This document shows positions 9,833 through 22,826 of a stretch of DNA of 28,428 nt, one piece after another (within the stretch, counting starts at the first letter, position 1; every line of letters begins with the position of its first letter). The stretch is from the IMG/VR virus record IMGVR_UViG_2534682139_000012. The stretch is one strand, 5' to 3'. The DNA comes from a virus. Its lineage: Duplodnaviria; Heunggongvirae; Uroviricota; Caudoviricetes. A program made the translations under genes and the position numbers. The notes under the pieces are model-generated. The model did no database searches, was not told the DNA's origin, and saw only the letters and a program-made list of their open reading frames with translations.

Positions 9833-10792
9833 ATGAAAATTTGTATCGACGACGGCTCCACCAACATCAAGCTGGCATGGACTGAGAACAGCGAACGCCG
9901 CAACGCCATCAGCCCGAACAGCTTCAAGTCGGAATGGTCTGCGCCGTTCGGTGGCTCGCAGCCTGCGAACTACATGCTTGATGGCGTGCGCTATGGTTTT
10001 GATCCGGTCAGCGATCGCTTTGTCCAGACGACCGACACGCAATACCAGTACAGCGATGTGAATGTAATCGCCATTCACCACGCGCTGGTCAAATCAGGCA
10101 TCACACCACAGGAGGTGGATGTGGTTGTCACCCTGCCACTGAGCGAGTATTTCGACACAAACGCACAGCCGGACATGGCCAACATCAACCGCAAAAAAGC
10201 GAACGTTATGCGCCCGGTGGAGTACCAGAACGGCGAAGCATTCACTATCCGTAACGTGCGGGTTATGCCTGAATCCATTCCGGCTGGCTTTAAGGCACTG
10301 GCTGACATGAGTCCGTTTGAATCCCTGCTGATTGTGGATTTAGGCGGAACCACGCTGGATGTGGCAAAGGTCCAGGGACAACTGGCAGGTATCAGCCAGG
10401 TGTTTTGCGATCCACACGTAGGCGTTTCCCTGATGGCCGATGCCGTACTGTCGGTGATGGCCACTAACGGTATGCGTACCAGTCACCACATCGCCAATAC
10501 CATTATCGAACATCGCCATGATGAAGCCTGGTTGCGCCAACACATCCACAATGACGCGCATTACGCCAGCCTGATGGCGGTTATTCGTGAAAAGGAAGAA
10601 ACACTGAAACAACGCGTGATCCGCGCGCTGGCGGGTTTTTCGGGTTACGGACGGGTGATGGTTGTCGGTGGCGGGGCGGAGATTGTGGCACCCGCTATCC
10701 GCGAAGCCTGCGGAGTTAATGCGACTTTCATCGCGGACGGGGTGCCACAGTTTGCTCTGGTTAATGGGCTGTACGCAATGGACAAGGAGTAA
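9833..10792 (+). CDS. parM: ParM/StbA-family actin-like segregation ATPase
   Basis: N-terminus MKICIDDGSTNIKLAW ... SPNSFKSEW ... YSDVNVIAIHHAL closely resembles plasmid R1 ParM (MLVFIDDGSTNIKLQW ... SPNSFKREW ... YSDVNVVAVHHAL). Confidence 0.85.
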   Translation: MKICIDDGSTNIKLAWTENSERRNAISPNSFKSEWSAPFGGSQPANYMLDGVRYGFDPVSDRFVQTTDTQYQYSDVNVIAIHHALVKSGITPQEVDVVVTLPLSEYFDTNAQPDMANINRKKANVMRPVEYQNGEAFTIRNVRVMPESIPAGFKALADMSPFESLLIVDLGGTTLDVAKVQGQLAGISQVFCDPHVGVSLMADAVLSVMATNGMRTSHHIANTIIEHRHDEAWLRQHIHNDAHYASLMAVIREKEETLKQRVIRALAGFSGYGRVMVVGGGAEIVAPAIREACGVNATFIADGVPQFALVNGLYAMDKE

Positions 10793-10796
10793 ACCA

Positions 10797-11108
10797 ATGA
10801 CGACACCAACCAGACGGATAAGTTTCTATCTGAAGCCCGCCGCCGTCAAGAACGAAGGCGAAGCATGCGCCTGGCTGGACAGCCTTACACCAGAAGCCCG
10901 CAAAAGCGGCCAACGTGTGGCTTTTCTGGCCGGGCTGGCACTTCTGAAAATGAATCCGGCAGAGGCTTACCGACTGGCTGCATGGGCTGATGATGAAGCG
11001 TTATCAGTGACACAAACCAGGACAGAACGCCCCGCATCACAGCCAGTATCAACCGCACAGATAACCAGTCAGATGGCCGGAAATATCCGGGCGTTATTTC
11101 CTGAATAA
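10797..11108 (+). CDS. parR: ParR-like partition adaptor (DNA-binding partner of ParM)
   Basis: MTTPTRRISFYLKPAAV ... LDSLTPEARKSGQRVAFLAGLAL resembles R1 ParR (RRTIAFKLNPD ... LDSIPQGERSRLNRAALTAGLAL); RBS AAGGAG; directly follows parM. Confidence 0.6.
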   Translation: MTTPTRRISFYLKPAAVKNEGEACAWLDSLTPEARKSGQRVAFLAGLALLKMNPAEAYRLAAWADDEALSVTQTRTERPASQPVSTAQITSQMAGNIRALFPE

Positions 11109-16517: not shown

Positions 16518-17570
16518 ATGAATCTGGTGATGTCAGATATTACCCGCAACAAGCTGGGTTGCTATATGGCGCAGCAGGCGTCGCTTAATAATATTCCGGT
16601 TTCCGCACTGGTATCGCGATTTACCGTGGAACCCTCGGTGCAGCAGCGTTTTGAAAACGCCTCAAAGGAAAGCACCGAATTTACGAAAAGAATTAACGTG
16701 ATCGGCGTGACCGACCAGAAAGGCGAAAAAATCCTCCTGGACACCACCGGGCCAATTGCGCGCACGAATAGCAGTTATGACGGCATCAAACGCCGTAACC
16801 CGAATAACGTGATCGATATGAAGTCTCGTCAGTACCAGTGCGAACAGGTGAACTACGATACCTTTATTTCGTATCCACAGCTTGATACCTGGGCGGCCCA
16901 CAGCGATTTTCAGTCCCGTATCAGTACACAGATCGCCCGGCAGGTAGCGCTTGATCGCATCATGATTGGCTTTAACGGCACATCCCACGCCTACGAGTCT
17001 GATTTTCACACCAACAAGCTGCTTCAGGACGTTAACGTGGGCTGGCTGGAGCACATCAGAACCGATGCCAGCGAGCGCGTAATGAATGACGTGACGCTGA
17101 CCTCCCGCAACATGGACAACACTGTGGCGCACGCGGGTAAGTATGCGAATGCCGATGCTCTGGTACAGGATGCGCGCTCATCCCTGCTGGATGAATGGCA
17201 CAAGGAAGCTGACGACCTCGCGGTGATTATGGGGCGCAACCTGTTTAACTCGCTGCGTCTGCCCGTGCTGAACAGCATCAGCGGCCAGAATCCCAATGCG
17301 GAATTACTTGCCGGGCAGCTCATCCTGTCATCGCGCACCATTGGCGGGCTGGGCGTGTTCCTTGCGCCGTTCTTCCCGGATGCAACGATGCTGATCACCT
17401 CGTTCAACAACCTGTCGATTTACTGGCAGAAAGGTTCAATGCGTCGCCTGATGAAAGACGAACCGGAATACAACCGCATCGCCACCTACCAGTCCATCAA
17501 TGACGCTTATGTCGTTGAAGACTATGGCAAGTGCGCGATGGTCACTGGCCTGAAGTTCGCCGACAGCTAA
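16518..17570 (+). CDS. N: P2 gpN-like major capsid protein
   Basis: FTVEPSV, GEKI, YQCEQVNYD, MLITSFNNLSIYW and YVVEDY resemble P2 N; 350 aa; RBS AAGGAG. Confidence 0.9.
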   Translation: MNLVMSDITRNKLGCYMAQQASLNNIPVSALVSRFTVEPSVQQRFENASKESTEFTKRINVIGVTDQKGEKILLDTTGPIARTNSSYDGIKRRNPNNVIDMKSRQYQCEQVNYDTFISYPQLDTWAAHSDFQSRISTQIARQVALDRIMIGFNGTSHAYESDFHTNKLLQDVNVGWLEHIRTDASERVMNDVTLTSRNMDNTVAHAGKYANADALVQDARSSLLDEWHKEADDLAVIMGRNLFNSLRLPVLNSISGQNPNAELLAGQLILSSRTIGGLGVFLAPFFPDATMLITSFNNLSIYWQKGSMRRLMKDEPEYNRIATYQSINDAYVVEDYGKCAMVTGLKFADS

Positions 17571-19927: not shown

Positions 19928-20319
19928 AGCTCTGGCCCACGCTTGGCGTCGCTTTCCTTCTGATTACATCCATGCGTCTGTCGTGGTCGCTGGGCCGGGA
20001 GAACGCCAGAAACGAAGCGCAGGCCAGCACCCTGAAAAGTACCGTCGACACACTGAATATCATCAGCGCCGGGGTACAGGATATGCAGCAGGTGCTGGCT
20101 CAGCTCCGCGCGGAAAATCAGCAACGCAATCAGGACGGAGAGGTAAGACGTGAACAGCTACGCAACGATATTGCAAAAGATGAATGCGCCCACGCTTTGC
20201 CTGACGCTCGTTTTACTGACAGGTTGCGCAGGCACGCAGAACGCGCCAGGGCCAGCGCCGTCAGTCCGGCTTATACCGCAGACGCTGACCATGCCGGTAA
20301 CGCCTCCCCCCTTCCCTGA
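19924..20319 (+). CDS. Rz-like inner-membrane spanin (LysB position)
   Basis: N-terminal TM (MKLWPTLGVAFLLITSM) followed by a coiled-coil-like region; ATGA overlap with the endolysin. Confidence 0.6.
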   Translation: MKLWPTLGVAFLLITSMRLSWSLGRENARNEAQASTLKSTVDTLNIISAGVQDMQQVLAQLRAENQQRNQDGEVRREQLRNDIAKDECAHALPDARFTDRLRRHAERARASAVSPAYTADADHAGNASPLP

Positions 20320-20461
20320 CCCACCCACATGGGGAAACCTCGGAATATGGGGCGACCGCCTTCTGGATGCACTGGAAACCTGTAACGCGGATAAACGGGC
20401 CATTGCTGAACTGGATAAGAGAATAGCCGAACTGACACACCAGACGGGAGTAACACAATGA
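20180..20461 (+). CDS. Rz1-like outer-membrane lipoprotein spanin (LysC position), overlapping the Rz-like gene in the +1 frame
   Basis: Lipobox LVLLTGC and a Pro-rich body (PVTPPPFPDPP); start could instead be 20150. Confidence 0.55.
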   Translation: MNAPTLCLTLVLLTGCAGTQNAPGPAPSVRLIPQTLTMPVTPPPFPDPPTWGNLGIWGDRLLDALETCNADKRAIAELDKRIAELTHQTGVTQ

Positions 20462-22335
20462 CCAGTAAGAACTTTGCACTGATTACAGCCATGACACAGG
20501 CTGAACTGACTCAAAAGGTGAATGAACATCTTGCGAAAGGGTGGCATCTTCAGGGGGAGACGCGGGTTGCCTACGAACCCGGCACCCCGTGGTATCTAAT
20601 GCAGGCAATGGTGGCCGATGGCACTACAGACATCTCACCTGATTCCCCCCAGCACGGCAGCGTGCCGGAGTGGTATTACGTGGTGGTACTTGCTGGTCAA
20701 TCCAATGCCATGTCATATGGTGAGGGAATGCCGCTGCCGGATTCTTACGATGCGCCCCACCCACGCATTAAGCAACTGGCCCGTCGCAACACAGTGACTC
20801 CCGGTGGTAAAGCATGCGCATTTAACGACATCATTCCGGCAGACCACTGCCTGCATGATGTTCAGGATATGAGCGCACTGAATCACCCGAATGCAGACCT
20901 GAGCAAAGGGCAGTATGGCTGTGTCGGACAGGGCTTGCATATTGCCAAACGCCTGTTGCCTTACATTCCACAGAATGCCGGGATTTTACTGGTTCCATGC
21001 TGTCGTGGTGGTTCGGCATTCACCCAGGGCGCGGAGGGGACATTCAGCGAGTCCACAGGAGCCAGTCAGGATTCGGCTCGCTGGGGTGTGGGTAAACCTT
21101 TATATCAGGACCTGATTTTGCGCACGAAGGCCGCATTGCAGAAAAACCCAAAAAACATGCTGCTGGCCGTATGCTGGATGCAGGGCGAATTTGACATGAG
21201 CGCCGCTACGTACTCACAGCAACCTCCGCTGTTTACGGCCATGCTGAAACAGTTTCGTGCGGACATTACCGAGTTTAACACGCAGTGTCATGGAGGCAGA
21301 GCGGCAAGTGTGCCATGGATTTGTGGTGACACGACGTATTACTGGAAAAACACCTACGGCACGCAGTACGACACCATTTACGGGGCGTACAAAAACAGGG
21401 AGAGCGACAACGTTTTCTTTGTGCCGTTCCTGACCGATGGTAGTGGCAACAATACCTCCACCAACGCACCAACGGAAGATCCGGATGCTGCAAGTGAGGG
21501 ATATTACGGTTCGGCATCCCGAACGAACAAAAACTGGGTATCATCAAATCGCCAGACGCATTTCAGCTCATGGGCGCGTCGTGGCATTATTCCCGATCGT
21601 ATGGCAACCGCTATTCTGAACGTAGCCGGTCGCACCTTAGCCTTCATCAGTGGTAAGGCACCGGAAATCAAACCCTCGCCCGGCGGCGACACGCCATCGG
21701 GGCCGTCTGAAGATGCATCCGTACGCACAATCTCCCTGTTGCCGACAGCCGGAGATGCTGCTGCGCAGGGCTGGAGCATTAAGAATGGCGGAATTCAGTT
21801 GTCAGAGGGTGTATTTAAGATCACCAAGCAGAGCAATAAAGCCTGGTCCCTGACGCGCCCGGTGGATGACGCAGTCTCCCTGCTGACACGGGGTGGCAGA
21901 CTGAGCTGTAAGTTTCGACTGTCAGGCGCACTGACCAACAATCAGTTCGGTCTGGGAATTTATCTGTATACCGATGTAGCGTTACCTGACGTCGTGGCGA
22001 TGACCGGGACTGGTAACCCGTTCCTGATGTCGTTCTTCACCCAGACCACAGACGGCAAACTGAATCTGATGCATCACAAGAAAGCAGGAAACACAAAGTT
22101 GGGCGAGTTCGGGAATTACAGTAACGACTGGCAGACGCTGGAGCTGGTGTTCACCGCCGGCAGTGCCACGGTTACTCCGAAACTGAATGGAGTGGCTGGC
22201 CCGGCATTCCAGGTCATAAAAGACAGTCTGACACTGGGGCTGAATGCGCTGACGTTAACTGATATCACTAAAAATGCCGCGTACGGCGTCGATATCGGCA
22301 GCCTGGTGCTGGAAATCAATAATCCCGCAGCATAA
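20458..22335 (+). CDS. NanS-like sialate O-acetylesterase family protein (SGNH/SASA domain with an N-terminal DUF1737-like domain); moron between the lysis cassette and tail genes
   Basis: N-terminus MTSKNFALITAMTQAELTQKVNEHLAKGWHLQGE; SASA-type active-site block VVVLAGQSNAMSYGEG; 625 aa; this slot is absent from canonical P2 between lysC and R. Confidence 0.65.
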   Translation: MTSKNFALITAMTQAELTQKVNEHLAKGWHLQGETRVAYEPGTPWYLMQAMVADGTTDISPDSPQHGSVPEWYYVVVLAGQSNAMSYGEGMPLPDSYDAPHPRIKQLARRNTVTPGGKACAFNDIIPADHCLHDVQDMSALNHPNADLSKGQYGCVGQGLHIAKRLLPYIPQNAGILLVPCCRGGSAFTQGAEGTFSESTGASQDSARWGVGKPLYQDLILRTKAALQKNPKNMLLAVCWMQGEFDMSAATYSQQPPLFTAMLKQFRADITEFNTQCHGGRAASVPWICGDTTYYWKNTYGTQYDTIYGAYKNRESDNVFFVPFLTDGSGNNTSTNAPTEDPDAASEGYYGSASRTNKNWVSSNRQTHFSSWARRGIIPDRMATAILNVAGRTLAFISGKAPEIKPSPGGDTPSGPSEDASVRTISLLPTAGDAAAQGWSIKNGGIQLSEGVFKITKQSNKAWSLTRPVDDAVSLLTRGGRLSCKFRLSGALTNNQFGLGIYLYTDVALPDVVAMTGTGNPFLMSFFTQTTDGKLNLMHHKKAGNTKLGEFGNYSNDWQTLELVFTAGSATVTPKLNGVAGPAFQVIKDSLTLGLNALTLTDITKNAAYGVDIGSLVLEINNPAA

Positions 22336-22358
22336 GGAAGAGCAGGAGAGCAAAACAG

Positions 22359-22826
22359 ATGCTTAAGACAAACAGTCTGCGAGAGTCCATGCTTCATGGG
22401 TGTCGGTGGTGCCAGGCTAATCCCGAGAAATTCACCATTTTCGTGGAGAGCGGCAACATTGAAACGACCGGAGAAGCGCCCTCGTTTGTTTACCGCTATC
22501 AGATGGTGATGTTTGTCATGGATTACGCCGGAGAGCTGGACGACCTCACGCTGCCGCTGCTGGCGTGGTTATCCGAAAATCAGCCACAGTTGTTGCTCAA
22601 TCCGGAGCGTAATCAGGACATCAAATTTTCTGCCGTTATCAATGACGATGACAGCGCCGATCTCCTGTTTACGCTCCCCCTGCGGGAACGCGTTCGCATC
22701 ACGCGCAACAGTCAGGGCACACCGCAGGCAGAACACCTGCCGGAGCCAAAACCCCGTCTGCCTTCTTCCGAAGGCGACTGGTCGCATGTATTCCAGGATG
22801 TGACGTGGGGTGAAAGCGATGGATAA
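22359..22826 (+). CDS. R: P2 gpR-like tail completion protein
   Basis: 155 aa, the same length as recalled for P2 R; synteny. Confidence 0.8.
   Translation: MLKTNSLRESMLHGCRWCQANPEKFTIFVESGNIETTGEAPSFVYRYQMVMFVMDYAGELDDLTLPLLAWLSENQPQLLLNPERNQDIKFSAVINDDDSADLLFTLPLRERVRITRNSQGTPQAEHLPEPKPRLPSSEGDWSHVFQDVTWGESDG

Follow-up and report, generated by a model that had tools for sequence, protein, structure and literature searches.

What is a sialate O-acetylesterase doing among the lysis and tail genes of a P2-type prophage, and what is the distinctive module at its N-terminus for? The question is raised by the IMG/VR virus record IMGVR_UViG_2534682139_000012, a stretch of 28,428 nucleotides from a member of the Caudoviricetes (this whole stretch is called the window below), in which a gene at 20458–22335 on the + strand encodes a 625-residue protein with Pfam, PHROG and PDB matches to the NanS-p family of sialate O-acetylesterases. 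To our knowledge, work on NanS-p esterases has dealt almost exclusively with the cargo genes of Shiga-toxin (Stx) phages in enterohaemorrhagic Escherichia coli, and the literature that we searched held no account of NanS-p in P2-like prophages, nor of a distinct anchor class. We predict with confidence that the window gene encodes a functional NanS-p-type sialate O-acetylesterase that is expressed together with the P2-type late genes. Its N-terminal module, here called D-type, may dock the enzyme on the phage capsid.

The esterase and its place in the late operon

The gene forms an uninterrupted open reading frame (ORF) from ATG 20458 to TAA 22333–22335, and the PHROG family phrog_143 covers the full length of its product (E=0); NCBIfam and PADLOC searches with the 625-residue protein returned no matches. 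The Pfam SASA profile matches residues 75–271 with 44.3 bits (cut-off 24.8), and the esterase motif VVVLAGQSNAMSYGEG lies at residues 75–90. The NanS structure 3PT5 aligns with residues 69–388 (E=1.7e-125, 57.5% identity over 320 residues), a span that, with the motif positions, marks the SGNH/SASA esterase domain at 20662–21621 on the + strand. The published block table for 3PT5 lists GQSNA, with the nucleophile Ser19, RGGSAF, MQGEFD and R-x-S-H301-FS. All four catalytic blocks are present in the window protein, as GQSNA at 80–84 (Ser82, codon 20701–20703), RGGSAF at 183–188 (Gly185), MQGEFD at 241–246 (Gln242/Glu244) and RQTHFS at 365–370 (His368, codon 21559–21561), and an alignment of eight diverse homologues, which spans all anchor types described below, shows no variation in their residues. 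A catalytic Ser/His/Asp set had previously been proposed as the mark of an active enzyme; the serine and the histidine are there, but an aspartate is unsuited to this family, since NanS itself is missing the Block V Asp and a main-chain oxygen fills that role.

Behind the esterase lies a domain that the earlier note on this stretch does not mention, DUF6645, which Pfam places at residues 476–586 (70.2 bits, above the curated threshold, E=2.1e-19). The structure 6YP6 (the C-terminal domain of phi24B vb_24B_21, a lectin-like jelly roll) aligns with residues 430–622 (E=1.7e-29), and on these two matches a lectin-like jelly-roll domain is assigned to residues 430–625 (21745–22332, + strand). The ratio of nonsynonymous to synonymous substitutions (dN/dS) of the esterase and lectin body is 0.16–0.20 relative to lambdoid alleles, indicating purifying selection. 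The structural matches, the invariant catalytic blocks and this selection together argue for an intact member of the family, and judged by its sequence the product is very likely a NanS-p-family sialate O-acetylesterase. Members of this family are known to remove O-acetyl groups from 5-N-acetyl-9-O-acetylneuraminic acid (Neu5,9Ac2) and mucin glycans, and to support growth of the lysogen. A signal-like hydrophobic N-terminus was not found, the maximum hydropathy over 12 residues being 1.15.

The host element is a P88-like E. coli prophage (Peduoviridae, Xuanwuvirus) of the P2 family. Its genes run in the order gpL, gpX, holin, M15 endolysin, LysB with embedded LysC, esterase, gpR, gpS, gpV, W, J, I and tail fibre, a P2-like late context between lysC and gpR that is not the lambdoid Q/stx-holin region. 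Directly upstream, lysC, encoding an Rz1-like o-spanin, lies inside lysB (20201–20461, + strand; Pfam LysC and the annotation of E. coli EC958); downstream, the gpR tail completion gene (22359–22826, + strand; Pfam P2_Phage_GpR, E=1.4e-38) starts 23 nucleotides after the esterase. In phage P2, lysC overlaps R, and lysC, R and S form one late operon ending after S, so that the slot is empty there. Nor is it filled in P88 or other Xuanwuvirus phages: the gene is absent from them, and their alignment to the flanks, at ~96% identity, falls into two pieces.

Translation of the esterase is coupled to that of lysC. The esterase ATG and the lysC TGA (20459–20461) overlap as ATGA, and a Shine–Dalgarno (SD) sequence, GGGAG (20446–20450), stands 7 nucleotides upstream of the start, the coupling signals as a whole occupying 20446–20461 on the + strand. 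The 23 nucleotides between its stop codon and gpR contain the SD of gpR, AGGAGAG (22344–22350). Promoter-like and terminator-like sites were no more frequent than in shuffled sequence, with no + strand terminator flanking the gene; an Rfam scan of 20000–22800 found no RNA family, and no meaningful flanking repeats or target-site duplications were found at the gene. GC content is 0.52–0.56 within the gene and 0.55–0.60 in its surroundings, without a compositional break. Because of the stop/start overlap, the absence of a promoter and terminator of its own and the short gap to gpR, we regard the esterase as an operon-embedded late gene, in a transcription unit of the P2 'O-operon' type, and not as an autonomous moron. 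Lambdoid nanS-p genes are induced along with the late genes, and this behaviour, taken with the operon layout, makes expression on prophage induction and exit at lysis likely for the window gene too.

These results bear out part of what an earlier note, made from the letters of this stretch, had proposed: a 625-residue ORF with a DUF1737-like N-terminus and a SASA/SGNH esterase block, placed between the lysis cassette and the tail genes in a slot empty in P2, and related to enzymes that the literature likewise describes as late-expressed genes of lambdoid (Stx) prophages. Its description of the gene as a moron does not survive in the strict sense, given the missing promoter and terminator, the even composition and the overlap of the ATG with the lysC stop.

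A mosaic gene with a P2-lineage front module

NanS-p homologues were surveyed in 160 IMG/VR loci, which are not mutually independent, and carry one of four N-terminal anchor types: A, as in phage 434 (SPVAITPYTLMQA), B, as in phi24B (SALISTAGYGAEFIQP), C, as in locus L101 (GPFSSYTDDGAALIQA), and D, as in the window (ETRVAYEPGTPWYLMQAM). A near-identical helix (residues 1–33) is common to types A, B and C. The D-type module occupies residues 1–55 (20458–20622, + strand) and is a putative capsid-docking or oligomerisation domain; it is a strongly diverged subtype of DUF1737 (Pfam PF08410, residues 4–53, 28.8 bits with a cut-off of 24, E=1.1e-6). The window module shares only 29–31% identity with A-type anchors and gives no BLAST alignment with types B or C. 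Its loop YEPGTPWY (residues 39–46) is 4–5 residues longer than in the lambdoid types and holds Tyr39, Trp45 and Tyr46, the alignment of which with phi24B Tyr42 is uncertain across this 4–5-residue insertion. A single-sequence AlphaFold model of residues 1–71 reached a mean predicted local distance difference test score (pLDDT) of 54 and was left unused.

This module is rare. A tblastn search with the N-terminal 72 residues against 50,697 phage records gave three matches only, all identical; phmmer with the same segment gave 10 matches among 1.84 billion representatives, and a word-index protein search returned near-identical fragments only. No D-type module was found in other species in a species-representative genome scan with pattern-limited sensitivity. 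A dedicated search for D-type anchors yielded 33 loci, all 33 with lysC directly upstream of the esterase; gpR follows downstream in 22 of 24, and a P2-type gpN is present in each of the 31 loci with enough flank. Relative to the allele of locus L014, from which it differs by a synonymous divergence of ~0.3, the D-type module has a dN/dS of 0.063, indicating purifying selection.

The same slot is filled in a second, deeply diverged P2-like lineage (L195–L201), which has a lysozyme-type endolysin and encodes an esterase of 642–656 residues. Compared with the window, this lineage is 61–71% identical in gpN, 57–65% in the anchor, 66–70% in the esterase and 31–37% in the C-terminal domain, and one of its forms is found in 14 complete E. 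coli genomes. The occurrence of the D-type in both P2-like lineages and its low dN/dS argue that it is an old, conserved part specific to the P2 lineage. The enzyme body, unlike the D-type anchor, has been exchanged with lambdoid copies. Sliding nucleotide identity to the phage 434 gene is 0.4–0.5 up to ~20660 and 0.72–1.0 from 20668 onwards; between the proteins, similarity is weak over the first ~68 residues and identity is 85–90% over the remainder. The boundary, at ~20665, falls by a Ser/Pro/Asp-rich linker (residues 56–68, TTDISPDSPQHGS, 20623–20661, + strand), and only residues ~69–625 are common to the lambdoid alleles, at ~85% nucleotide identity and with gene-conversion mosaics. The earlier note had spoken of a moron exchange between phage families as a notable case. 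Exchange holds for the body, residues ~69–625 resembling lambdoid alleles, but not for the N-terminal DUF1737, which is separate and confined to P2-like contexts; nor is the case isolated, given the D-type esterase in the same slot of the second lineage.

Within one chromosome, the exchange can be followed between prophages. In strain EC958, the esterases of the P2-like Phi1 and of the lambdoid Phi4, which has an H4-type head (L174:13189–15042), are near identical over residues ~352–600 and differ elsewhere, which points to recent gene conversion between co-resident prophages; in two further alleles from P2 contexts (L010, L014), a central tract matches a lambdoid allele at ~100% identity. The common esterase body also gives unrelated prophages of a single chromosome a bridge for recombination. 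Reciprocal hybrid loci were also seen, with P2-type genes and a D-type anchor on the left and lambdoid head genes on the right (L012/L013, also L176), or with lambdoid genes and an A-type anchor on the left and gpR/S/V on the right (L020/L033); these reflect either inter-prophage recombination or inversion through the esterase gene, or assembly chimeras at a repeat. Among P2-like phages, homology to P88 ends at ~20412 in the 3' end of lysC, the last ~16 lysC codons (from ~20413) being different, and returns at ~22420 in the 5' end of gpR, the first ~60 nucleotides of which diverge. By this comparison, the inserted or replaced segment would have its edges at ~20413 on the left and ~22420 on the right, and since the gap reaches into both neighbouring genes, the module appears to have travelled among P2-like phages along with short ends of the adjoining genes.

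Positions 20000–22800 are 100% identical to prophage Phi1 of sequence type 131 (ST131) strains such as EC958 and JJ1887. The esterase gene is 100% identical to EC958 965829–967706 (EC958_RS04675, WP_000202148.1) and is very probably EC958_1029, because its 82.4% identity to the Phi4 esterase EC958_1546 fits the published 82.7%. The sequence is present in hundreds of genomes, where it is annotated only as 'DUF6645 domain-containing protein', with one mention, as EC958_1029. Among 5,426 complete E. coli genomes, the occupied junction of lysC and the anchor occurs in 367, all at no less than 99% identity, and the empty lysC/gpR junction in 688, so that ~65% of complete genomes with a P88-like lysis cassette are without the esterase gene. 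Counting the 14 genomes with the second (L198-type) form, 381 of 5,426 (~7%) have an esterase in a P2-type context. The esterase core was found in 347 phage records, of which three are P2-like, each of them a prophage called in silico and broken off within the gene. The records vB_EcoM-569R5, 705R2 and Entero_P88 were considered as virion evidence and rejected, as prophages of this kind, called in silico on draft assemblies, with host genes included and the esterase cut through. The database phage genomes ON470599, ON470623 and PV468777 (L175, L002) are in-silico prophage calls with the host genes focA, pflB and dmsABC that end within the esterase gene; these ends are probably contig breaks caused by the multi-copy esterase gene.

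Anchor type, head type and the function of the module

A NanS-p homologue of phi24B, gp84, is described in a 2026 preprint as a virion protein: its DUF1737 domain (residues 2–57) occupies, as a hexamer, the face-centre hexon pores in a T=9 capsid (T, triangulation number), where a loop tyrosine anchors it, and the enzyme domains are later cleaved off. This report led us to ask whether anchor type follows head type across the 160 loci. Anchor A was found with the lambda-like head H1 in 38 loci, with H4 in 12 and with H3 in one, and with one-sided P2 genes in two hybrid loci; anchor B with the phi24B-like head H2 in seven loci and with H4 in one; anchor C with H3 in seven of seven; and anchor D with the P2 gpN in 10 loci and one hybrid. 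A strict one-to-one fit of anchor to head fell once head module H4 was included. The association is strong, yet imperfect. For the D-type module, the candidate partner for docking in the window is gpN (16518–17570, + strand), the major capsid protein, annotated in EC958 as 'phage major capsid protein, P2 family'.

We propose that the enzyme would be made only on prophage induction and would leave the cell at phage lysis. It would take O-acetyl groups off Neu5,9Ac2 on mucins or off free sialic acid, which sister lysogens that survive could then use or cleave. If the analogy with phi24B gp84 applies, the P2-lineage D-type DUF1737 would dock the enzyme, probably in oligomeric form, on P2-type capsid hexons, and the phage particle would then bear a mucin-binding, mucin-modifying enzyme. 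The esterase and lectin body would be repeatedly homogenised with lambdoid nanS-p copies of the same chromosome, the D-type anchor staying with the P2-type backbone. Taken whole, this account of a late-operon NanS-p esterase that is released at lysis and docks through its D-type module is one that we hold to be moderately probable. The docking step, which draws on the phi24B analogy, we put forward on its own as a possible rather than a probable one. Somewhat more tentative still is its generalisation, that DUF1737 serves as an interchangeable module for docking on capsids, adapted to the family of the head, and that P2-like phages display a lectin-bearing mucin-sialate esterase on a myovirus head.

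Much of the evidence could also be accommodated if the protein were simply soluble cargo of benefit to the lysogen, freed at lysis, with DUF1737 serving folding or oligomerisation and the D-type being P2-specific by descent and too diverged for recombination with lambdoid copies. We give this explanation appreciable but lesser weight. It is the established model for NanS-p, built on growth on Neu5,9Ac2 and mucin de-O-acetylation, and several observations favour it or weigh against capsid docking. The mapping of anchor to head is not one-to-one, anchor A being promiscuous across the unrelated heads H1 and H4 (and once H3) and anchor B occurring once with H4. The mosaic boundary lies exactly at the start of lambdoid homology, as homology-limited gene conversion predicts, and common descent together with such conversion can explain, without any binding, why the D-type goes with P2 heads. 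Heads of the P2 type have T=7, and a face-centre hexon is absent from them. The phi24B anchor is described as binding face-centre hexons only, in its T=9 shell, and the preprint that places gp84 in the virion is unreviewed. An origin of the D-type from a stand-alone P2 decoration protein was considered and found no support, as the nearest stand-alone DUF1737 proteins (P0016–P0018) are encoded either on short contigs or in surroundings that are unrelated and not P2-like. Moreover, in four D-type copies (L179, L185, L190, L191) premature stops shorten the product to 218–286 residues at unchanged locus length; a minority of prophages thus have a decaying copy, and the gene is therefore dispensable. 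The sole functional test, in which EC958_1029 was cloned and overexpressed in an earlier study, left motility unaffected. Against mere solubility stand the strong purifying selection on the D-type, its retention across the deep divergence of the P2 lineages while the other two domains vary freely, the capsid binding of the homologous phi24B domain, and the near head-specificity of anchors B and C.

The position of the gene among virion and lysis genes, and its frequency in the extra-intestinal lineage ST131, might instead suggest an aid to infection, in which the esterase strips O-acetyl groups from O-antigen or from the O-acetylated polysialic K1 capsule and thereby exposes the receptor of the P2-like phage. 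This has been proposed for NanS-p in the literature as an untested idea, and we find it improbable here, as the sialate-specific NanS and the window enzyme are 57% identical and the ~65% of P88-like cassettes without the gene speak against a basic role in adsorption. Least credible of all is that the gene is a neutral hitch-hiker of recombination between co-resident prophages: gene conversion, the hybrid loci between P2-like and lambdoid copies and the truncated copies would fit such an origin, but the ORF is intact, 367 genomes have the occupied junction at 99% identity or more, body and anchor both show a dN/dS well below 1, integration into the operon is precise, and the same slot is filled in a second, old P2-like lineage. 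A NanS-p-type gene is a fixed and selected component of P2-family prophages, among them Phi1 of the pandemic ST131 clone, with a lineage-specific module at its front. If docking on the capsid is true, a virion-level role in mucus would complement the account of a metabolic benefit to the lysogen, swaps among anchors D, A, B and C would offer a simple genetic system for targeting enzymes to heads, and a natural scaffold for capsid display would be suggested. It would also imply a general system of an anchor plus a swappable enzyme, in which the body is traded between phage families and the anchor stays with the capsid.

The wider prophage and known systems

Elsewhere in the prophage, an IS3-family insertion element sits in the 3' end of the integrase gene (window 1–888 on the + strand and 770–1633 on the − strand), with an rve transposase and an ALIL frameshift pseudoknot at 1–72. 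The integrase aligns with the intact 330-residue P2-type integrase only to residue ~234, so that the catalytic C-terminus is missing and this prophage copy is probably unable to excise. The window itself does not come from ST131. Its integrase and immunity arm (1–3400) matches P2-like prophages in Shiga toxin-producing E. coli O145:H28 and O103:H2 at 98–100%. The integrase is only 35% identical to that of ST131 Phi1, whereas the late region is 100% identical to it; the same late module thus rides on different early and integration modules. A plasmid-type partition pair, ParM/StbA and a ParR-like Plasmid_stab_B protein (9833–10792 and 10662–11108), lies between replication gene A and the portal gene and hints at a possible stage of extrachromosomal maintenance. 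In the early region, Rfam matches above the gathering score were obtained at 5973–6047 and 6083–6170, to the Hfq-binding small RNA isrK and to the C4 antisense RNA of P1/P7-type immunity. In EC958, Phi1 has an 801-nucleotide VgrG/Pvc8-family coding sequence beside an incomplete fragment in its gpD-like tail gene (L004:36525–37378, outside the window), and may itself be defective.

The closest known relatives of the window protein are the NanS-p enzymes of lambdoid and Stx phages, such as CPT_434_71 of phage 434, EC958_1546 and the 'yjhS' of Stx1a phages, which have the same DUF1737–SASA–DUF6645 order and the same catalytic blocks, at 80–82% overall identity and ~85–95% over residues 69–625. 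Both are late-operon genes adjoining a lysis cassette. However, the lambdoid genes lie between Q/stx and the holin, whereas the window gene belongs to a P2-family myovirus in which the spanins are followed by the esterase and then by R. The phage 434 gene has annotated flanking terminators, which the window gene lacks, being coupled to lysC instead. The 933W-type NanS-p of phi24B (gp84, vb_24B_21) has the domain order and the DUF1737 fold family in common with the window protein, an esterase that is 67% identical and a homologous C-terminal domain, but its anchor segment is unrelated at the level of BLAST; phi24B itself is a podovirus with a T=9 shell, and only for this phage are association with the virion and self-cleavage known.

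The chromosomal NanS (YjhS) is a single-domain protein of ~330 residues that has an export signal and belongs to the nan regulon, whereas the window protein has two extra domains and is phage-encoded, in a prophage late operon. A precedent for decoration at the centres of gpN hexons is provided by Psu of phage P4, which decorates the gpN hexamers of P2/P4-type capsids and carries no enzyme. The parallel with Psu is a lead only; if the D-type module does dock on the P2-type head, the NanS-p esterase would represent a second kind of decoration on gpN capsids.

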